Origin: an uncultured Paraglaciecola sp.
GTDB taxonomy: Bacteria > Pseudomonadota > Gammaproteobacteria > Enterobacterales > Alteromonadaceae
Assembly: GCF_963977085.1 (NCBI RefSeq)
Contig: NZ_CAXBNC010000001.1
Span: 414,054-478,053 of the forward strand
DNA length: 64,000 nt
Direction of reading: 5' to 3'
The first letter of the stretch is position 1. The number at the start of each line of letters is the position of its first letter. Under the pieces are notes generated by a model. That model was not told the DNA's origin, did no database searches, and was given only the letters and a program-made list of their open reading frames with translations. Of this stretch, positions 40,830 to 56,111 are shown piece by piece. The translations under genes and the position numbers were made by a program.

Positions 40830-42395
40830 ATGCCATATTTGAAACTTAAAATTGTATCAGGCAGTGAAACAGGTCAGAACGATAACTATAACTTTACAGG
40901 AGTAGGCGGTTCCATTGGACGGTCTGATGATTGTGATTGGACGTTAATAGATAGCGATAGATTCGTTTCCAAAAAGCACTTAGTTATCACATTTAGAAAT
41001 CAACAGTTTGTATTAACGGATGTCAGTAGCAATGGTGTGATTATTAATAGTGCTGGCACACCATTGGGTCACGGCAATGAGCATATGCTTCAGGCTTCGG
41101 ATACACTTGTAATTGGAAAACACGTTGTTAAGGTTGAAGAAATTAACCTAGATGACGTTGGGGTTAACCCTTTTCAAACGCAAACAAATAATGGGGATTT
41201 ATTGGGTTTAGTCATGGACTCAAATGCAGCTACAGCACCAAAACAAGAGCCGGCCCAAGACCCATTTCAAGGGCAACAATCTCCATTCCAAATGCCTGAA
41301 AGTACTCCAGTACCAGACATACTCGATACGCCAAAACCAGAAAGTGATCTAGGCTTAGGAGATATTTTATCGGCACCAATTAATTCCCCCTCTGAAAACC
41401 AGTTTTCGAATGTTAATGAGCAATCCAACCCATTTAATACAAGTGAACCCTCATCTCCTTTTGATGTGATTTCTGAAAACAATGCCATTACTCCTAACAT
41501 TAAATCCGATGATGCGCTTATACCAGATGATTGGGAGATGTTTGATTCAATGTCTTCCGTTAGTGATTTTGAAACACCCATTAAATCCGAGGATCCAGTT
41601 CCGCCAATTGTGAATGAAGTAAGCCCGGAAACTAATGTACAGGTGCAACCTGATCTGCCTCAGAGTGCACCTGAGCCTATACCTGAATACAATTCACCAA
41701 TCTTTGAAGAAAAGCCTATTGTCAGGGCAATGCCTCAAGAAACTAGCCCACCCACTCCTGATAATGTAAAGCAAAGTGTGAGTGCCGAGGCCAATTCTAA
41801 AAATACTAACGATGATTTTTTTAGCTCCTTGTATGAAAAACTAGGGCTATCAAAAGAATTTAAGGCATCCATTGATCAAGACACTTTTGCCGAAGATATC
41901 GCGACCATCTTGTTATCAACAACCCAAGGACTCATGTCGCTATTAGCGAGTAGAACGGCCTTTAAACAAGAATCGCGGATGTCAGCAACACTTATACAGC
42001 CCAAATCTAATAACCCGATAAAATTTTCAATTGATCCCGTTGATACCCTAGAAATGCTATTGGTTAAGAAAAAAAAGGGGTACATGTCTGTAGGGAACTC
42101 TTATGATGAAGCCATGCAGGATATTCAATTACACCAAATGGCATTTATGTCAGGTTTACAAGGCACCTTAGATGGAGTGCTAGCGCAACTGGCCCCAGAG
42201 GGCATTGAAGCTCAAGTGAATAACAAATCCCAAATGTTTAAAGGATTAAACTCTAATTCACAGTGCTGGAAAATTTATAAAGAAAAACATCCTTTGCTTG
42301 CAAAGAGTGTAAAAGAGAATCTTAATGAGGTACTCGGTACTTATTTCTCAGATTCATATCAATCACATATTAATCGTTATAAGACTGACAAATAA
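40830..42395 (+). CDS. tagH: T6SS FHA-domain protein TagH
   Basis: N-terminal FHA (IGRS..CDW.L.D..RFVSK.H, DVSSNG); Pro/acidic linker; C-terminal SR..FK.E.R...T.I....NNPIKFS and HQMA...G. Confidence 0.92.
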   Translation: MPYLKLKIVSGSETGQNDNYNFTGVGGSIGRSDDCDWTLIDSDRFVSKKHLVITFRNQQFVLTDVSSNGVIINSAGTPLGHGNEHMLQASDTLVIGKHVVKVEEINLDDVGVNPFQTQTNNGDLLGLVMDSNAATAPKQEPAQDPFQGQQSPFQMPESTPVPDILDTPKPESDLGLGDILSAPINSPSENQFSNVNEQSNPFNTSEPSSPFDVISENNAITPNIKSDDALIPDDWEMFDSMSSVSDFETPIKSEDPVPPIVNEVSPETNVQVQPDLPQSAPEPIPEYNSPIFEEKPIVRAMPQETSPPTPDNVKQSVSAEANSKNTNDDFFSSLYEKLGLSKEFKASIDQDTFAEDIATILLSTTQGLMSLLASRTAFKQESRMSATLIQPKSNNPIKFSIDPVDTLEMLLVKKKKGYMSVGNSYDEAMQDIQLHQMAFMSGLQGTLDGVLAQLAPEGIEAQVNNKSQMFKGLNSNSQCWKIYKEKHPLLAKSVKENLNEVLGTYFSDSYQSHINRYKTDK

Positions 42396-44247: not shown

Positions 44248-45558
44248 ATGCAAGACGAAGATAGGACTATGATTATTCCGAATCCAGGTGGACGACGGAA
44301 ATCAGGAAACACACAAACGTTCCGACCTTCTCCATCAGAGCCGACTCCGCCCAGTAGTCAGACAGTTCAAGTGAATTTAAATGCCTCTGCACAATTTGAT
44401 GGGGAAAATATAATTCTGTCTTCGGCAAGTGACTTGATAATTTTGGCAAGTCATATTCGCTCCTTGGAGCCGAGCAATAGTATTGAACAACTACGCAGAG
44501 ATATCGAAACTTTAATTACCAAATTTGACCAACAACTTAATCAATTTAATTTGAGCACAGAAGTAGCACTTACCGCGCGTTATCTCATATGTTGTTTACT
44601 TGATGAATTGGTACTCTCGACGCCTTGGGGATCAGATAGTGCTTGGAGTAATCAAACCTTACTCAGTAAGTATCACAATGAAACATCCGGTGGAGAGAAG
44701 TTTTTTCTCATCGTAAATAAACTATTGGAACAGCCGCAGCGCAACATTGATTTAATCGAGTTATGTTACGTCTGCTTATCATCAGGATTTTGTGGGAAAT
44801 ATCGACTTTCAAAACAAGGCGAATCTGAATTACTGGAAATAAGCCAGAGATTATATCGACCAATAGAACAGACTCGCCCTATTAGCCGTGATTTGTCTCC
44901 TAGTTGGCAAGGAGTAGGCGATTTAAAAACAGGTTTTGTTAAGGGGTTCCCACTTCCAGTATTTTTCCTAATTCTTGGGTTCATTTTAATCGCTGTGTAT
45001 ATTGCGTTTTTATCCAGTTTAAAAGCAAAAGTAGAACCTCTATACCAAAAAATAGAATCCATTGGCTGGGAGCAACCGATAACTCAACCAGTCAACATAC
45101 AGCCGAATCCTATTGATATAAATAAAGTTGCCAATTCACTGAAGCAAGCATTGAGCGTCTACATCGACAACAAAATAGTGTCCGTTGATGTAAGGAATGA
45201 TCAAATTTTTATACGCTTTATTAGTACAAGTTTATTTAAGTCAGGCAGTAGCGTAATTAATGAAAGTTCACTGCCAGATGTCAATGTATTGGTGAATGCC
45301 ATTAAAAATTATGCGGATCGAGTATTGGTCGTTGGACATACCGACTCCACAGGTAAGCCAGATTCAAATTGGGTTATATCCCGTAAAAGAGCAGAAGCCA
45401 TTGCTAAATGGTTAACAACAAGTAACCAACAATTGTTTAATACCATGACGAGAGGGGTTGCTGATACACAACCATTAGTAAGCGACGATAGCGATTACAA
45501 TCGAAGCATTAACCGCCGTGTTGAACTGACTCTGATTTTGAAGGATGAACTCATATAA
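44248..45558 (+). CDS. tssL: T6SS TssL (DotU) with C-terminal OmpA/MotB peptidoglycan-binding domain
   Basis: Start ATG 44248 (AGGAG RBS); RY..C..LDE.V..TPWG, H.ET.GGEKFF, one TM, GHTD...N..IS..RA and NRRVE. Confidence 0.94.
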   Translation: MQDEDRTMIIPNPGGRRKSGNTQTFRPSPSEPTPPSSQTVQVNLNASAQFDGENIILSSASDLIILASHIRSLEPSNSIEQLRRDIETLITKFDQQLNQFNLSTEVALTARYLICCLLDELVLSTPWGSDSAWSNQTLLSKYHNETSGGEKFFLIVNKLLEQPQRNIDLIELCYVCLSSGFCGKYRLSKQGESELLEISQRLYRPIEQTRPISRDLSPSWQGVGDLKTGFVKGFPLPVFFLILGFILIAVYIAFLSSLKAKVEPLYQKIESIGWEQPITQPVNIQPNPIDINKVANSLKQALSVYIDNKIVSVDVRNDQIFIRFISTSLFKSGSSVINESSLPDVNVLVNAIKNYADRVLVVGHTDSTGKPDSNWVISRKRAEAIAKWLTTSNQQLFNTMTRGVADTQPLVSDDSDYNRSINRRVELTLILKDELI

Positions 45559-49716: not shown

Positions 49717-50514
49717 TCATCGAGTTAGAGGTAAGGTATCGTCTAAGTTTGATTGGTTAGTATGAATATTTTTACTTCCATCCATGATCTCTAAAGACTG
49801 TTGATTATCAACAACTATTACAGTGACATTATCCCGAGCTTTGCGTTCCAATGACATTTTTATTAATAGTGGCGCAATAGATTCTAATGGTGTGCTCAAT
49901 AAAAGTTGCTCAATCTCGGCATCATCAATAACTTTGTTTAGACCGTCACTACATAAAAAATATTTATCCCCGTCTAGCCTAACATCGCTAACTACATCCA
50001 AGTCTAACTCTTCACTTGCACCAACAGCGCGAGTGATAACATTAGCATTTGGATGACGTTCGGCTTCTTCAGGTGTTAAAAGTCCTTTCTGCACCAACTC
50101 TTCAACTTGACTATGATCTTGGGTAAGTCGGGTTAGTTTATTATTACGTACCCGATAAATTCGGCTATCACCCGCCCAAATACAGTGGGCAAATTGATGG
50201 TCAAAAAGCAGTACAACTACCGTACTTCCAATAACTGCTTGTTTCTCACTCGCCATTGAGACTAATCGACTATTAACGTCCTGCAATACATGGGCGATTT
50301 GCTGAGTACCCAGGGGATAACTATTTGTATTGGCTATATCCTGCAAACTATTAACTATCATTTTGCTGGCTACATCACCTTTAGCATGCCCACCCATTCC
50401 ATCGGCCACACACCACATGCCTTGTTGAGAACTGTCTAAAAATCCATCTTCATTAACTTTTCTAATAGTGCCAATATCTGTTTTCCCTACCGATTTCCAT
50501 GGACGTTCAAGCAT
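49717..50514 (-). CDS. pppA: PP2C-family Ser/Thr phosphatase (PppA-like)
   Basis: TD.G..R..NED, VADGMGGH..GD.AS, GDSR.Y, LTQDHS, LCSDGL, DNVT; start moved to ATG 50514. Confidence 0.88.
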   Translation of the reverse strand: MLERPWKSVGKTDIGTIRKVNEDGFLDSSQQGMWCVADGMGGHAKGDVASKMIVNSLQDIANTNSYPLGTQQIAHVLQDVNSRLVSMASEKQAVIGSTVVVLLFDHQFAHCIWAGDSRIYRVRNNKLTRLTQDHSQVEELVQKGLLTPEEAERHPNANVITRAVGASEELDLDVVSDVRLDGDKYFLCSDGLNKVIDDAEIEQLLLSTPLESIAPLLIKMSLERKARDNVTVIVVDNQQSLEIMDGSKNIHTNQSNLDDTLPLTR

Positions 50515-50733
50515 AATTATTGTTCCCAGTGCAGCCAATATATAAAACACATTACAGGTTTCGGACAGCTAAGTCGCCCTAACTTCTTTAATACATAAAC
50601 TCGAAACATTATAGATACAAATGTCTTTGATTGCTGGTATTTTTCTAGGTAGACTTAAGGTCAAATTCTGCACGAATTTTCTTACATATTGAAGCCATTC
50701 TTGCATTAATTCTCAAAAAAATAAGGTCGCTTA

Positions 50734-53016
50734 ATGGAAGAAAACATATTGAATAAAAAGATTGGGCGCTACGAGATCAAGGAAATGATCGGTGAAGGTG
50801 CGATGGCTAAGGTCTACCGTGCATATGATCCTGAAATTAATCGCTCTGTTGCTTTCAAAGTACTCAAAGAAGATCACTGTGTAGATGAAGAGTATTTGTC
50901 TAGATTTTTACGTGAAGCTAAGGCTGCTGGAGCTCTTTCCCACTCAGGAATTGTGACCGTTTATGATGTGGGTAAAATAGAAAAGTCTCCCTATATTATG
51001 ATGGAGCTTTTAGATGGCTGTGACTTAGGTGAAGTCCTTAAGAACAATAAAAAACTGCCACTTAAGCAAACTCTGATTATTGCTTTACAACTCGCTAAAT
51101 CCCTAGATTATGCCCATAAATCCGGGATCATTCATCGTGATATTAAACCTGATAACATTATCGTTATGCCAGATGGTGAGTCTATTAAGGTCGCAGATTT
51201 TGGTATAGCAAGGATGAACGAGACTGAAGAGTCTCAAAAAACTCAAGTAGGTTCTGTTTTAGGCACCCCCCGCTACATGTCACCAGAACAAGCTCTAGGA
51301 GATACTGTTGATGGCCGTTCGGATTTATTTTCCGTAGGCACTATCATGTACGAAATGCTTAGTGGCAATAAAGCGTTTGATGCCGGAAATATGGCCACTT
51401 TAATGATACAGATTGCGCAGAAACAACCTGAACCCTTAAAAACTTTATGCCCGGACATTCCAGCGGGTGTGCGTCAAATAATTCAAAAGTTATTACAGAA
51501 ATCTCCCGACAAACGCTTTCAAACGGGAAACAAACTAGCAGAGGCATTGGGCAAAGAATTAAGTACCTTAAGCGATCAACAAGCTGAGCAGAAAAAACAC
51601 AAATATATTCCTTTAAAAATACGCTGGACATTGTCAGTTGCTGCAATTGTAGGTCTCGTTTCTTTTATAAGCATAAATATCGTTTTTAACATGCAATCTT
51701 CGGCAATGACTAAACAAGCTGTCGACTCTGGTGCGTCGTTTGCAAAATTCATTTCTACAGAAACGGCTATACCAATACTCAGTGAAGATTGGATCTCCTT
51801 AGAGACGTTTATTGGTGATGCCGCAAGTAGAGATACATTTTCATATTTAATCGTTACTGACAGGTCTGGAGTGGTTCGCGGAGCAAGTGATAATAGTTTG
51901 GTAGGCAAGATGTACCAACCAAATGAAAATGATGTGCTTATTAGTGAAACCGAAGATGTACATACAACTAGTACAGAAACAGCAGATGGTAAAAATATAT
52001 TTAACATCAAAACGCCTATTTTGTTTCAAAGCACTGAAGTTGGCCAAATAATCCTAGGTTTATCTCAAGATGGATTAGATGAGGTTAAAAGGATTACAGG
52101 TTGGCTGATGTTTATTTTAGCGCTCATCACAACATCTTCAGTGGCTGTGGTTATGTTTATTTTTGGTGGCTTAATCGCTCGACCATTTAAGGTATTAAAT
52201 GACTCTCTGAAAGGTTTTGCGGCAGGAAATTTAGACACCAGAATATCGTTGGCTCGAAATGATGAATTTGGTGAGGCATTTGATTCCTTTAATAATATGG
52301 CCGCAGCGATTCAAGACAGATACACAGAAGTAACTGATGAGCTAGCGCAAACAGGTATCGATAGGACAGGGATTACTGACAATAACTCCAAAGATACCGA
52401 TGCAGAAACCGAACACTCCGATAGCAACAGTGCTCAGAAGAGCGTTTCGGATCCCGGGGTAGATTTAGGACCTGATGAAACCGTGATCTCCAATAGCCAA
52501 ATCGATCTCAAAAATAAATCTGACCAGGCTACAAAAAAAGCGGTAACTCAACACCCAGAACCATCAGAGGTTTCTGAGAATAAAGCTGAAGTTGAATCTG
52601 AGATAGATGAAGACGCTGACAGGACGATCATTTCTAACAGTCAGATTGGTCTCAATACTGCGCCAAACGAAGCCAGCAAAGAGATCACTGAAAATGTTAA
52701 GAAACCAGAAATGTCTGAAACCAGTTCTGATGTAGAGGTCAACCCAGACCAAACAGTGATTTCTTCTAGCCAAATTATTATAAATGAAGACTCTGATGTG
52801 AGTGATGGTAAACCTGAAGACTCAACTTCCACCGCTACTCAGACAGACATAGCGGCTCCACCGAAGAGCACTAAAGAGACTGAGGTACAAACGCCAGCTA
52901 AAAAACCACCAGTAAAACGTAGAACTAGAAAGAAACCAGTGAAAGCGCCGGTAGAAGCTGAGGATGCAATAAAAAAAGACACGGTTGCCGATCCTGACGA
53001 GAGTGCAAAAAGTTGA
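50734..53016 (+). CDS. Membrane Ser/Thr kinase (PpkA-like) with two TMs, periplasmic domain, HAMP domain and acidic tail
   Basis: IGEGAMAKVY, VAFK, HRDIKPDN, DFGIA, GTPRYMSPEQ; TMs near residues 300-320 and 455-480; HAMP motif PF..L....K.FAAGNL..RI...RNDEFG. Confidence 0.9.
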   Translation: MEENILNKKIGRYEIKEMIGEGAMAKVYRAYDPEINRSVAFKVLKEDHCVDEEYLSRFLREAKAAGALSHSGIVTVYDVGKIEKSPYIMMELLDGCDLGEVLKNNKKLPLKQTLIIALQLAKSLDYAHKSGIIHRDIKPDNIIVMPDGESIKVADFGIARMNETEESQKTQVGSVLGTPRYMSPEQALGDTVDGRSDLFSVGTIMYEMLSGNKAFDAGNMATLMIQIAQKQPEPLKTLCPDIPAGVRQIIQKLLQKSPDKRFQTGNKLAEALGKELSTLSDQQAEQKKHKYIPLKIRWTLSVAAIVGLVSFISINIVFNMQSSAMTKQAVDSGASFAKFISTETAIPILSEDWISLETFIGDAASRDTFSYLIVTDRSGVVRGASDNSLVGKMYQPNENDVLISETEDVHTTSTETADGKNIFNIKTPILFQSTEVGQIILGLSQDGLDEVKRITGWLMFILALITTSSVAVVMFIFGGLIARPFKVLNDSLKGFAAGNLDTRISLARNDEFGEAFDSFNNMAAAIQDRYTEVTDELAQTGIDRTGITDNNSKDTDAETEHSDSNSAQKSVSDPGVDLGPDETVISNSQIDLKNKSDQATKKAVTQHPEPSEVSENKAEVESEIDEDADRTIISNSQIGLNTAPNEASKEITENVKKPEMSETSSDVEVNPDQTVISSSQIIINEDSDVSDGKPEDSTSTATQTDIAAPPKSTKETEVQTPAKKPPVKRRTRKKPVKAPVEAEDAIKKDTVADPDESAKS

Positions 53017-53990
53017 GGTATTTATTTCTGATCTTTTTGCCCGTTTTGTTGTTCGGCTGTTCAACAACACCTAGGCAAGTAATTGCGAGTAATGATGATT
53101 TTATCGTTTTACAGACAGATAATAATGATACTTATGAGTCCTTAGCCGAAGAGTTTTTAGGTGGCCAGCAATATTCAGAAATTCTAGAAAGATACAACCC
53201 ACAAACAACTGTAAAGTCAGGTAGTTATGTAGCCATTCCCAAAAGAGTCATCAACCGTTCTGGTGTTTTTGTTGATGGCTATCAACGTATACCGGTTCTC
53301 TGCTATCACCAATTTACCGAAGAAAATCAAAGTAAAAATAAGATGGTAGTGACCCGAGCTGAGTTTGAACGCCAGATGGATTATCTCGCTTCAAATGGCT
53401 ATCAAGTGCTAGCACTAAGTGAATTAGGCAACTTTCTAAAGGGTGAAAAAGAACTACCTAAAAAATCAGTTGTGATAACCATAGACGATGGTTATAGGAG
53501 CTACCTGGAAGTGGCTTATCCTATTTTAAAAAAATATGATTTTCCCTCCACAATGTTTGTTTACCCAGACTTTATAGGAGCAGGCCGAGCCCTCAAATGG
53601 CAAGACGTAAAATTCCTAAGTAAAATACCTTTGGTAGACATTCAATCCCACTCCAAATCACATGATAGTTTATCGCCGCGGCCATTAGGTGAATCAGATG
53701 AAGACTATTTAGCACGATTAAAAATTGAAGTTGAAGGGGCAGAAAAAATATTAACCCGTAGAACCAAACAAGAAATTAATCATTTTGCCTATCCATATGG
53801 AAATAGTAGTTTAGAAGTAGTTGAACTCTTAGAACACAACAATTACGAACTTGCGGTCACAGTTCATAAAGGAAGTAACCCTTCATTTTCAACTCCATTT
53901 TTATTGCATAGAACCATGATATATGGAGGAGATAGTCTAAACACTTTCAAGAAAAGCTTGGATGTATTTAGTACTATGGCGCTCAAATGA
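53013..53990 (+). CDS. Lipoprotein with LysM-like domain and CE4 polysaccharide deacetylase domain
   Basis: Lipobox LFGC; DTYESLAEEFLG...I..YN LysM-like segment; PVLCYH, TIDDG, QSHSKSH and FAYPYG catalytic motifs intact; TTG start overlapping the kinase stop. Confidence 0.88.
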   Translation: MRYLFLIFLPVLLFGCSTTPRQVIASNDDFIVLQTDNNDTYESLAEEFLGGQQYSEILERYNPQTTVKSGSYVAIPKRVINRSGVFVDGYQRIPVLCYHQFTEENQSKNKMVVTRAEFERQMDYLASNGYQVLALSELGNFLKGEKELPKKSVVITIDDGYRSYLEVAYPILKKYDFPSTMFVYPDFIGAGRALKWQDVKFLSKIPLVDIQSHSKSHDSLSPRPLGESDEDYLARLKIEVEGAEKILTRRTKQEINHFAYPYGNSSLEVVELLEHNNYELAVTVHKGSNPSFSTPFLLHRTMIYGGDSLNTFKKSLDVFSTMALK

Positions 53991-54913
53991 TAGAACGTAT
54001 TATCTGTGTAACCCTGTTAGTTTTTTGTAGTTCTTGCAGCACAAATTTTATAGATAGCCGCGCGTTGTTCGAACAGCGTAGTCCAATTGCTAACTCTTTA
54101 GAAGACCAGCAACGTTATGCAGAAGCGCTGACACAATGGAAGATTTTGCAGATAGCCTATCCTAACGATGAAATGGTAAAAGAGCATATACTGCGGCTCG
54201 AACTTTTAATATCAGATAAAGTCATTCAGCAACTCGCTGTTTTAGACAAAGCTAAGGCATCAGCGGATGAAACCTTAGAGCGCAAGGTCTATTTAAAAAT
54301 ATTGGCTTTAGATCCTAATAATCAAATTGCAATGGAAGAGTTACGAAAGTTTGAATGGAAATTTGCTATTCAAGAAGCCAGCTCAAAAACTGCAAATATT
54401 AAGAAGTATTTTGTTGAGACACAACAAGAGGCTAATATTTCAATCCAACTCACTAAGTATCTTGAGCAAGGTGAGCAGTTAATACATGATAGAAAGTACA
54501 AAGAGTTATTACAGCTAGCTGATAAATTTGAAGATTCTTACCCTACACACCTAGAGCCTAACGAGTATCGGATACTAGCCTATTCCAAACTAGGAGAAGG
54601 TCAGCAAAAGCAGAATAAAACAAAAGAAGCCATTGAGTATTACCAGCAAGCATTGGACCTAGCCGCGCTTAAAGGTGATAATTTACCCAACATACGCAAA
54701 AAAACAGATCAACTCTCAAGCTTAATTGCAAACAGGTATTTACGATTAGCCAATCAAGTATTTAAAACTAATTTAGATGAGGCGATTAATTACTTTGAGC
54801 AGTCTCTTAAATATCAACCCAACAATGTTAAGACTCGCCAACTAATGCAGCGAGCCATAAAGATTAGAGAGAACTTATTAAAAATTAAAAAACTAGACTC
54901 TAATTCCGATTAA
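53987..54913 (+). CDS. TPR-repeat protein, probable lipoprotein
   Basis: N-terminal hydrophobic stretch ending CSSC; TPRs (AL.QW, LALDPNN, AI.YF..SL.YQP.N). Confidence 0.7.
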   Translation: MIERIICVTLLVFCSSCSTNFIDSRALFEQRSPIANSLEDQQRYAEALTQWKILQIAYPNDEMVKEHILRLELLISDKVIQQLAVLDKAKASADETLERKVYLKILALDPNNQIAMEELRKFEWKFAIQEASSKTANIKKYFVETQQEANISIQLTKYLEQGEQLIHDRKYKELLQLADKFEDSYPTHLEPNEYRILAYSKLGEGQQKQNKTKEAIEYYQQALDLAALKGDNLPNIRKKTDQLSSLIANRYLRLANQVFKTNLDEAINYFEQSLKYQPNNVKTRQLMQRAIKIRENLLKIKKLDSNSD

Positions 54914-56111
54914 GTTTATTTAATTTTTCTTTGAGCTCTAAAGCCTGCGCCCTATATAGTTTTGCACTTGAATGGTCAGGATTTACCTTCAAAACCATAT
55001 CCCATTTTTGAATTGCGAGATCGAGTTCTTGACGTCGAAAAGCAGATGACGCTTCTCTATGGTATTTATCAGCAATTTCTTTCTGTAATACCAACATTTC
55101 TTCCATCGCTTGGTCATTTTGATCGTCTAGGTCAGTTGCCATTTTAAAGTTTTCAAACGCACTAAACGCATTTTCTTCTTGTAAATTTAACTGCCCAGCT
55201 TTTTCGAAGTATGTTGCAGCTAGGATATTGTCGGTTTCAGCAATTTCTTTTGCTCGTCCGATATAGGTTGCTATTGCCAGCCCTCTACTTTCCTTATTAA
55301 GCTTACCAAATGAACTCAGTGTGGCTAGTTTTTCAATTGCGGCGGCGTAATCCATATTTTCCGCTAATGTTTGCAAATCACTAAATGCAGACTCTGCCGT
55401 TTCAATTGGAGCGACAGGAATAACTTCCGCTAAAACTGGCTCATCAACAGGTAGTTCAGTTTCTTCAACTATGTCCTCAACAACGTCAACGGCTTCCTCT
55501 ACTTCTTTGGCTTCCTCTTCCATTGCCAAATCAAGGGCAGTTTCCTCGTTATCTATACTATGAGTTTCGAGGGCCAAGGCGTTATCTTTATCACGTTGAG
55601 TCCGTGCAAGTTGCGTCAAAGGTATTTTGATTTCTTGCCCTATGTTAACCCGGCTAGGATTGGCAATATTATTGTACTTAGCTAAAGCGTAAAATTTTAA
55701 GGCTGAGCCTAAGTACTTTTTCGCAAGTGTAGAAAGACTCGCGCCAGAGGTTAGATTAACTTTGAAATGTTCTGCTGGGAAATATTGGCTCGAGTCAGTG
55801 GATATTTGTGCAACTAAATTTCTCGCACTATTACTTCTAGGTACCGCTTCTAGATATGCATTAAGCTCAGCTAAGGCCTGTCCATCTTCACCATTTTCAA
55901 GTTTTTCTAACGCTTTGCTAAAACGTTGTCTAGGTGTCAAACCGGCTTCAGCGATATAACTTTGTTTATTTAGAGAACCCTTATCTTTATTTACCTCTGC
56001 TGGGGTAGTATTTCCTGTTGAACCACCACTAGCGCCACATCCAGATAAAATTAACCCCGCAACTAATAACGCAGCTGATAATTTTATTTTATTGTCCATA
56101 CAACTAATCAT
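54900..56111 (-). CDS. LysM and TPR lipoprotein
   Basis: Lipobox LSGC; G.SLS.LAKKYLG....F..LA.YNNIANP..V.IGQ.IKIP LysM; acidic linker; C-terminal TPR. Confidence 0.82.
   Translation of the reverse strand: MISCMDNKIKLSAALLVAGLILSGCGASGGSTGNTTPAEVNKDKGSLNKQSYIAEAGLTPRQRFSKALEKLENGEDGQALAELNAYLEAVPRSNSARNLVAQISTDSSQYFPAEHFKVNLTSGASLSTLAKKYLGSALKFYALAKYNNIANPSRVNIGQEIKIPLTQLARTQRDKDNALALETHSIDNEETALDLAMEEEAKEVEEAVDVVEDIVEETELPVDEPVLAEVIPVAPIETAESAFSDLQTLAENMDYAAAIEKLATLSSFGKLNKESRGLAIATYIGRAKEIAETDNILAATYFEKAGQLNLQEENAFSAFENFKMATDLDDQNDQAMEEMLVLQKEIADKYHREASSAFRRQELDLAIQKWDMVLKVNPDHSSAKLYRAQALELKEKLNKLNRN

Follow-up and report, generated by a model that had tools for sequence, protein, structure and literature searches.

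A threonine box repeated in a kinase tail, with counterparts on TssL and PppA: candidate phosphothreonine sites at a Paraglaciecola type VI secretion cluster

We describe here a threonine-centred motif that recurs on several proteins of a type VI secretion system (T6SS) cluster in an uncultured Paraglaciecola sp.; the stretch of DNA analysed, hereafter the window, is 64,000 nucleotides long and lies on contig NZ_CAXBNC010000001.1. The cytoplasmic tail of a Hanks-type Ser/Thr kinase carries three copies of the motif, and alignments indicate that it is the sole conserved element of this fast-evolving tail. A box with the same core opens the machine protein TssL, and a relative of it closes the phosphatase PppA. 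The motifs on the three proteins are probably phosphorylation sites that would recruit a scaffold protein able to read phosphothreonine (pThr). In its components the cluster matches the known T6SS threonine phosphorylation pathway: the kinase, a PP2C phosphatase and the FHA-domain protein TagH are all present.

Results

Three copies of a 14-residue box in the kinase tail

The peptides D581-E-T583-VISNSQI, D629-R-T631-IISNSQI and D672-Q-T674-VISSSQI start at positions 52474, 52618 and 52747 of the window, and these, like the TssL and PppA motifs described below, stand exactly where the original prediction had placed them. That prediction had also described a motif preserved amid dissimilar spacers, and the alignment bears this out: over 28 sequences, mean identity to the window kinase is 91% for residues 1-528, 65% for the motif columns and 22% for the tail spacers. 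The motif is longer than had been noted. In the window kinase it spans 14 residues, N-P-D-x-T-[IV]-I-S-x-S-Q-I-x-[LI], from N-P at -4/-3 of the threonine to [LI] at +9, and its copies occupy residues 579-592, 627-640 and 670-683 (GPDETVISNSQIDL, DADRTIISNSQIGL and NPDQTVISSSQIII).

When the entire 5.38-Mb genome is translated in six frames (2.53 million residues), the pattern D.T[VI][IVL][SA].S[QLS]I has three matches, all of them in the kinase tail. For each of the seven residues common to the three copies two or more different codons are in use, and the repeat is thus kept by selection on the protein rather than by recent duplication of the DNA. The loose core D-x-T-phi-phi (phi, aliphatic) is far more frequent, with 530 matches in the same translation, or about one per 4,800 residues; the matches in TssL and PppA are not significant from one genome and become so only through their conservation in orthologues.

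A search restricted to the tail returned 41 proteins of the same architecture, which together with 19 orthologues from genome contigs made up 55 distinct tails with 113 instances of the motif. Conservation in orthologous tails had been proposed as a check, and all 41 proteins carry the motif, in one to five copies (one to six across all orthologues). The resulting logo, N-P-D-[EQ]-T-[IV]-I-[SA]-[TSN]-S-Q-I-[GN]-[LI], is nearly rigid at four positions: Asp(-2) is found in 113/113 instances, Thr in 112/113 (the remaining one being Ala, never Ser), Ser(+5) in 112/113 and Ile(+7) in 111/113. Position +3 is Ser in 96 and Ala in 17. In the alignment D629, T631 and I632 of box 2 are nearly invariant, and N670, P671, D672, T674, I676, S679, Q680 and I681 of box 3 are invariant or nearly so.

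In distant kinase orthologues S-x-S-Q-I has been lost and the core D-x-T-[IV]-[IV] alone is left, at times in a TssL-like form. The kinase of a Pseudoalteromonadaceae metagenome-assembled genome (MAG; locus L014, 9995-12301) has six DKTVVITRKP boxes in near-identical tandem units, Porticoccaceae kinases (L016, L017, L019) have a single C-terminal NPDFTIIEPRAGQ, and the box of L005 reads DADRTIIKP. Since TssL-like boxes occur in these orthologues, the kinase-type and TssL-type boxes interconvert. Betaproteobacterial orthologues (L021, L025) stop right after HAMP, with neither tail nor box. Two classical T6SS PpkAs of the class sample described below (L109, L119) also bear TssL-like boxes, 80-120 residues past the kinase domain (SDRTVIMPSHKKR; NDKTVLFSDHKKK and NDKTVFMPRRKKK), which suggests that T6SS kinases acquired such boxes independently.

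Architecture of the kinase

Pfam recognises Pkinase (13-264), sCache_3_2 (323-450) and HAMP (478-528) in the kinase, and two hydropathy peaks mark transmembrane segments at about 296-318 and 455-480, on either side of sCache_3_2. With two such segments, the predicted topology puts the kinase domain, and likewise all that follows HAMP, in the cytoplasm. This departs from the classical PpkA plan of a kinase domain, a single transmembrane segment and a periplasmic C-terminal domain. The catalytic motifs VAFK, HRDIKPDN, DFG and SPE are intact in the sequence. The tail is acidic (isoelectric point 4.4; grand average of hydropathy -1.07), with few hydrophobic residues and no F, W or C.

Near its end the tail also bears a basic patch, KKPPVKRRTRKKPVK, which is present in most orthologous tails and of which K733 and K734 are nearly invariant. 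Counterparts are seen as GGRR(K) after TssL boxes and as HKKR/RRKKK after the boxes of the two classical PpkAs. The patch may make contact with the membrane or with a partner.

The TssL box accompanies FHA proteins across the class

TssL starts MQDEDRT7MII (D5-I10 at 44260-44277), and the full box, DEDR-T7-MIIPNPGGRR, is conserved in orthologous clusters as SKTMIIPNPGGRR and SKTMVIPNPGGRR. L001-L003, L006 and L009 keep Thr7, which lies within DEDRTMIIPNPGGRR. For a class-wide view we took 60 tssL loci out of a 400-genome sample of the class and compared the N-terminus of each TssL with whether kinase, PP2C, FHA/TagH and TagF occur within the same ~20 kb. An acidic-x-T-phi-phi box, in most cases with [RK]-P-x-P-G-G after it, was found in 32/34 FHA-positive loci, nine of which have two copies, and the extended box in 0/24 scorable FHA-negative loci; two more FHA-negative loci carry the extended box, on contigs with less than 2.5 kb of sequence upstream of tssL, where TagH is not scorable. 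With a strict regular expression the box was present in 24 and absent from 10 FHA-positive loci, against 0 and 13 FHA-negative ones (Fisher p = 8e-6, the counts not being phylogenetically independent). Thr holds the acceptor position in 28/28 TssL boxes, and +3 is Ile in the window and Arg/Lys in most others.

The TssL core follows FHA, not TagF. It is present, without the P-x-P-G-G extension, in 5/6 loci that have FHA and no TagF, and at the sixth (L139), which is devoid of the core, the FHA domain has lost the pThr-binding Arg and Ser. No genome with a TssL box and no Hanks kinase was found among the 15 examined, a test that is non-discriminating: all 15, although without a kinase at the locus, have Hanks kinases elsewhere, several of them 15-21 kb from tssL. 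The paired boxes mentioned above stand in tandem (SDRTVIRPRGG...DEDRTVVRPRPG, for example) in L111, L113, L118, L120, L121, L124, L125, L128 and L141.

PppA ends in a box of its own

The C-terminus of PppA, LDDTLPLTR (49720-49743, minus strand), reads T-L-P, not T-phi-phi. L-D-D-T-L-P-L-x-R is conserved, and at times doubled, in nearly all gammaproteobacterial PppAs paired with this kinase family. Of the best 120 homologues retrieved from a large protein collection, nearly every one with about 47% identity or more has D-x-T-L-P-[LF] at its end, in two copies in ten cases, and more distant PP2Cs stop directly after the catalytic domain. Thr is present in 82/82 PppA boxes, and +3 is Leu in PppA. 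No D-x-T-L-P-L tail was found in the PP2Cs of other T6SS clusters, which rules out this tail as a common trait of T6SS PP2C phosphatases.

PppA itself matches PP2C_2 (8.7e-11) and PP2C (5e-9), and nearly all orthologous loci keep its pairing with the kinase. Its longest reading frame begins at a GTG at 50550 on the minus strand; because orthologues begin at an internal ATG position (MLERPWKSVGKTDIG...), the true start is probably 50514, which would give a protein of 265 aa.

Candidate readers

In an alignment of 32 TagH FHA domains the canonical pThr-binding residues G-R, S-x-x-H and N-G are kept. TagH linkers contain the box at background rate (4 matches in 9,573 aa), so TagH was dropped as a box carrier or self-ligand and is regarded as a reader. 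A search of the PDB with the TagH FHA sequence gave weak matches to the FHA domain of M. tuberculosis TB39.8 (E ~0.005) and no usable ligand complex.

At least one FHA protein is present in 19/19 checked genomes carrying the kinase family; FHA proteins were found in 6/6 genomes tested in connection with the T6SS-less cases described below. In one of these cases, P. hydrolytica S66, a 230-aa membrane-anchored FHA protein directly adjoins PppA, and FHA proteins of 120 and 325 aa are further candidate readers; the window's genome has a 231-aa membrane FHA protein on another contig. Members of this ~231-aa family, such as those at G000 contig C7:259644-260336 (locus L086) and L010:8178-8870, have N-terminal transmembrane helices, a C-terminal FHA domain and a Thr-aliphatic end (SKTTLIHNKQ, EKTTILHKD, NQTMFIDKPE). 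We considered the family as a dedicated reader of the tail and rejected it as a general partner: it is found in only 7/19 kinase genomes, and elsewhere it is an orphan without conserved neighbours and with neither kinase nor PP2C beside it.

Two other FHA proteins came to light. In Porticoccaceae MAGs (L085, L089, L090) a ~415-460 aa protein combining FHA with a SpoIIE/PP2C-like domain carries S-L-D-R-T-A-V-F-F upstream of its own FHA domain, which hints at a wider kinase/FHA code based on D-x-T-phi-phi in bacteria of the Porticoccaceae type. In betaproteobacterial MAGs (L021:8660-9781, L025:1154-2311) a short TagH-like protein (373 aa; FHA and partial T6SS_FHA_C) lies beside the tail-less kinase, and full T6SS TagH genes are found at other sites of these genomes.

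Kinase, PppA and three lipoproteins form a portable module

The divergent PppA, the kinase, a polysaccharide deacetylase lipoprotein, a TPR lipoprotein and a convergent LysM-TPR lipoprotein form a conserved synteny unit. The synteny of lipoproteins and kinase is kept in at least 20 loci, including T6SS-less genomes and the tail-less betaproteobacterial orthologues. In most Alteromonadaceae the unit lies at the edge of a T6SS cluster, or of a VgrG/PAAR island 20-25 kb from tagH; in the window the kinase gene is 1 kb from tagF-tssM (Table 1). Overlaps of 4 nt at 53013 and 53987 point to translational coupling of the lipoprotein genes to the kinase. By analogy with TagQR, the lipoproteins may provide a peptidoglycan-sensing input for the Cache domain.

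The kinase family is not confined to genomes with a T6SS. A genome-wide check found no DotU, T6SS_FHA_C or VipB in five genomes that carry the kinase module: Paraglaciecola hydrolytica S66, one Paraglaciecola MAG and three Porticoccaceae MAGs. Kinase boxes are present in 5/5 of them (DETILASSLIEL; DETIIANTQIEP and DETILVVSQ; DFTIIEPRAGQ). The D-x-T-L-P-L box of PppA is kept in the two Paraglaciecola genomes, and the Porticoccaceae PppA ends otherwise, in a long tail with DLDRHTLVAPA. Rather than being specific to TagH, the boxes thus go with a portable module of PppA, kinase and three lipoproteins.

Table 1. Features of the T6SS cluster and of the kinase module, in coordinates of the window
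Feature	Position	Strand	Remarks
T6SS cluster			TagH, TssJ, TssK, TssL, TssM, TagF, then PppA and Hanks kinase
TagH ORF	40830-42395	+	Pfam FHA 3.8e-13, T6SS_FHA_C 1.9e-49
TagH FHA domain, candidate reader	40911..41117	+	Canonical G30-R31, S47-x-x-H50, N68-G69
TssL ORF	44248 (ATG)-45558	+	DotU and OmpA domains (Pfam)
TssL N-terminal Thr box	44254..44298	+	D3-E-D-R-T7-M-I-I-P-N-P-G-G-R-R17
PppA, PP2C phosphatase ORF	49717-50514	-	To 50550 if upstream GTG used; divergent from kinase
PppA C-terminal box	49720..49746	-	L-D-D-T-L-P-L-T-R
Hanks-type Ser/Thr kinase, 760 aa	50734..53016	+	Pkinase 5.2e-51
Acidic cytoplasmic kinase tail, predicted disordered	52321..53013	+	Residues 530-760 (231 residues)
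Kinase Thr box 1	52468..52509	+	GPDE-T583-VISNSQIDL
Kinase Thr box 2	52612..52653	+	DADR-T631-IISNSQIGL
Kinase Thr box 3	52741..52782	+	NPDQ-T674-VISSSQIII
Basic patch near kinase tail end	52900..52944	+	KKPPVKRRTRKKPVK, residues 723-737
Polysaccharide deacetylase lipoprotein	53013-53990	+	Pfam
TPR lipoprotein	53987-54913	+	Pfam
LysM-TPR lipoprotein	54900-56111	-	Pfam; convergent

Discussion

A model of phosphothreonine reading, and what weighs against it

The explanation that we favour, and whose chances we put slightly above even, is that the boxes on the kinase tail, TssL and PppA become phosphorylated on threonine and are read by FHA domains, chiefly that of TagH in this genome. The tail would be an intrinsically disordered, fast-evolving linker that displays three Thr boxes with the core Asp(-2)-x-Thr-aliphatic-aliphatic. 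Once activated, the kinase would autophosphorylate Thr583, Thr631 and Thr674 and phosphorylate Thr7 of TssL. A kinase dimer, formed via HAMP, could then hold several TagH molecules at the membrane beside TssL and so nucleate T6SS assembly. PppA, as eraser, would probably be drawn by its D-D-T-L-P-L box either to this reader or to the kinase. Together with PppA and the three peptidoglycan-related lipoproteins, the Cache-HAMP kinase would make up a portable envelope-sensing module, and where there is no T6SS another FHA protein would act as reader. Ser occupies the acceptor position in 0/223 instances over kinase, TssL and PppA; that the residue is always the threonine expected of an acceptor, save for a single Ala, and never Ser fits the pThr-specific pockets of FHA domains. 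The boxes are always found in segments that appear disordered and cytoplasmic, at or near the membrane.

Several observations weigh against this model, and we gather them here. FHA domains commonly select Ile/Leu/Val, or Asp, at pT+3, and the kinase box has Ser or Ala at the position where many of them favour a hydrophobic residue. Its strict conservation from +3 to +9 (S-x-S-Q-I-x-L) reaches beyond what an FHA domain usually covers, which suggests that the segment makes a second contact or has a different partner. The PppA box is best described, from its sequence, as a related but distinct flavour, tied to the kinase family and not to the T6SS because it is confined to the paired phosphatase clade. 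The kinase boxes persist without TssL, TagH or TssC in the five T6SS-less genomes, and therefore TagH is not their sole or original reader; as an alternative reader, the membrane FHA protein of 7/19 kinase genomes stands beside the kinase once only. The association between TssL box and FHA is confounded with T6SS subtype, as PP2C and TagF co-vary too. In L014, TssL (~98-1519) starts MNDKPIIRPGGRR, with Pro in place of the box Thr. An AlphaFold2 model of the full kinase, built on the 28-sequence alignment, left the kinase domain itself unfolded (mean predicted local distance difference test score 35, predicted template modelling score 0.22) and was discarded; the tail has no secondary structure in it, but the entire model is of low confidence. 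Finally, phosphoproteomic mass spectrometry in P. aeruginosa found PpkA-dependent phosphopeptides in PpkA and Fha1 only, not in TssL (PMC13713981), which calls for caution against taking TssL phosphorylation as general.

The locus just mentioned deserves a further remark. At L014 PppA has no C-terminal box and the adjoining kinase is the one with six TssL-like boxes, and it may be that docking sites there have moved from TssL to the kinase.

The original prediction had held that one phospho-Thr code links kinase, phosphatase, TssL and TagH. Our data sustain part of this claim, through the near-invariance of the threonine, the tracking of FHA by the TssL box and the intact pocket of TagH. The part that fares badly is its unity, given boxes that outlive TagH and TssL, a phosphatase motif of another flavour and Ser/Ala at +3 of the kinase box.

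Alternative explanations

The boxes could instead serve as acceptor or docking sites within the kinase-phosphatase pair, with no FHA reader involved. Autophosphorylation of the tail would then tune output, for example via HAMP; in a variant, the boxes would be a tethered substrate or pseudosubstrate that docks PppA, whose own D-x-T-L-P-L tail would dock on the kinase domain. The likeness of TssL would reflect kinase substrate preference only (acidic at -2, aliphatic at +1). Three observations suit such an arrangement: kinase and PppA boxes occur together in L001-L011, L018 and L027 and are jointly absent in the tail-less L021 and L025, the PppA box stays within the phosphatase clade paired with the kinase family, and boxes survive in T6SS-less genomes. 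However, excluding Ser so completely is more characteristic of FHA domains as readers than of kinase specificity on its own; every genome checked has FHA proteins, the TssL box tracks FHA, and L014 combines a six-box kinase with a box-less PppA. We consider this explanation unlikely.

Alternatively, the motif may work without phosphorylation, as a short linear motif in which TIISTSQIGL forms a beta-strand 'sticker' that associates with itself or contributes a strand to a partner such as TssL, TssK or TagF and thereby clusters or condenses the kinase, the threonine being structural. Conservation over 14 residues with beta-prone side chains would agree with this, as would a variable copy number, which is typical of multivalent stickers. 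Acidovorax PpkA does phase-separate (PMC12607579), and V. cholerae, which is without PpkA (review, PMC13584744), still shows binding of the N-terminal part of Fha to the cytoplasmic domain of TssL (PMC13389060). A structural threonine should nevertheless be swapped at times for Ser, Val or Ile, which is hard to reconcile with Thr in 112/113; the invariant Asp(-2) and the acidic context suit recognition by a kinase or an FHA domain, and distant orthologues keep D-x-T-phi-phi alone. This makes the sticker quite unlikely.

A third possibility, with which the original prediction had also reckoned, makes the triple repeat a sponge or decoy that would compete with TssL Thr7 for TagH and so set a threshold, acting negatively or as a buffer and not as a scaffold. 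Kinase and TssL share the core, and there are three sites per kinase for one per TssL. Stoichiometry does matter in Acidovorax, where excess Fha blocks TssL foci and co-expression of PpkA restores them (PMC12607579). Yet copy number runs from one to six among close relatives, with no fixed threshold apparent, and boxes are kept where TagH or TssL is missing. No sequence feature tells a sponge from a scaffold, so that the two cannot be separated with data of this kind; we judge the sponge improbable. As for chance similarity or a functionless low-complexity repeat, the frequency of the loose core (530 per 2.5 million residues) and the biased composition of the tail could invite it, but it is refuted by the conservation of the motif, whose strict form is unique to the tail in the genome, persists across 55 tails with decaying spacers and uses different codons in each copy, and we give it next to no credence.

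Significance

A broader proposal can be put forward tentatively, as a possibility that we would not back at even chances: [DE]-x-T-aliphatic-aliphatic would be a general phospho-code of TagH-type T6SSs, with the TssL box as universal receptor of the TagH FHA domain, kinase arrays, acquired independently by several lineages within disordered cytoplasmic segments, as multivalent nucleators of TagH condensates wherever an envelope signal has been sensed, and the module as a portable sensor of peptidoglycan damage available to any FHA reader, whether of a T6SS or not. Two models of T6SS activation are current, one in which Fha both binds the phosphorylated kinase and undergoes phosphorylation (Pseudomonas, Serratia) and one in which it binds phosphorylated TssL (Agrobacterium). 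A single box on both kinase and TssL, tracking TagH across the class, would unify them and name the exact residues to mutate. If the code were general, phosphorylation of TssL, for which Agrobacterium is the only demonstrated case so far, would be the common mode of the pathway. The box array would also give a concrete molecular basis, in multivalent pThr-FHA contacts, to the kinase/Fha condensates reported to start T6SS assembly, and the occurrence of the module outside T6SSs points to a general envelope-sensing Ser/Thr signalling in marine Gammaproteobacteria.

Comparison with known systems

In the literature searched we found no two-pass kinase of Cache-HAMP type that bears an array of boxes in the cytoplasm, no box on the phosphatase, and neither the generality of the TssL box nor a consensus shared by kinase and TssL. 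The parts of the scheme have several relatives. In P. aeruginosa, TagH (Fha1) binds pThr on the autophosphorylated kinase (review, PMC13584744). The H1-T6SS of this species (TagQRST-PpkA-PppA-Fha1) resembles the window in its PP2C antagonist and in having lipoproteins, periplasmic or outer-membrane ones, upstream of the kinase. It differs in that its PpkA is single-pass with a periplasmic C-terminus, whereas the window kinase is predicted to be two-pass (Cache, HAMP) with a cytoplasmic boxed tail, and in that the partner lipoproteins of the window are of LysM, deacetylase and TPR types, not TagQRST.

The TssW-PpkA-Fha axis of Acidovorax citrulli is comparable in its use of the kinase as a structural nucleator: condensates of PpkA recruit Fha and the cytoplasmic domain of TssL, and the PpkA:Fha ratio controls assembly (PMC12607579). 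There, no sequence motif has been defined for the contacts, and the kinase is a classical one with a periplasmic C-terminus. A more remote parallel is Rv1747 of M. tuberculosis, in which two FHA domains are joined by a disordered linker with pThr152 and pThr210, phosphorylated by PknF (PMC8339232). The likeness lies in several pThr sites within a disordered segment read by FHA domains, in multivalent clustering or phase separation, and in a state that a Hanks kinase sets and a PP2C undoes. In Rv1747, however, sites and readers are in one protein, whereas here the sites would be on the kinase, TssL and the phosphatase with the reader apart; organism and machine are unrelated.

The closest counterpart of the TssL box is the PpkA-TssL pThr14-Fha switch of Agrobacterium. 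Fha of A. tumefaciens binds the TssL peptide DLPpTVVEI and not its unphosphorylated form, and this is the sole experimentally mapped Fha ligand (PMC3953482). As in the window, the threonine lies in the disordered N-terminus of TssL, with an Asp before it and two aliphatic residues after it (DLP-T-VVEI and DEDR-T-MII; in Agrobacterium both are beta-branched), and the cluster codes for a Hanks kinase, a PP2C, TagF and an FHA protein of TagH type. Lin et al. (2014) reported that the Thr14 region of TssL is not conserved beyond Agrobacterium and Rhizobium (PMC3953482). What the loci studied here add, at the level of sequence, is [DE]-x-T-phi-phi(-x-P-x-P-G-G) in 32/34 TagH-type loci of another class; in the window, kinase and phosphatase are boxed as well.

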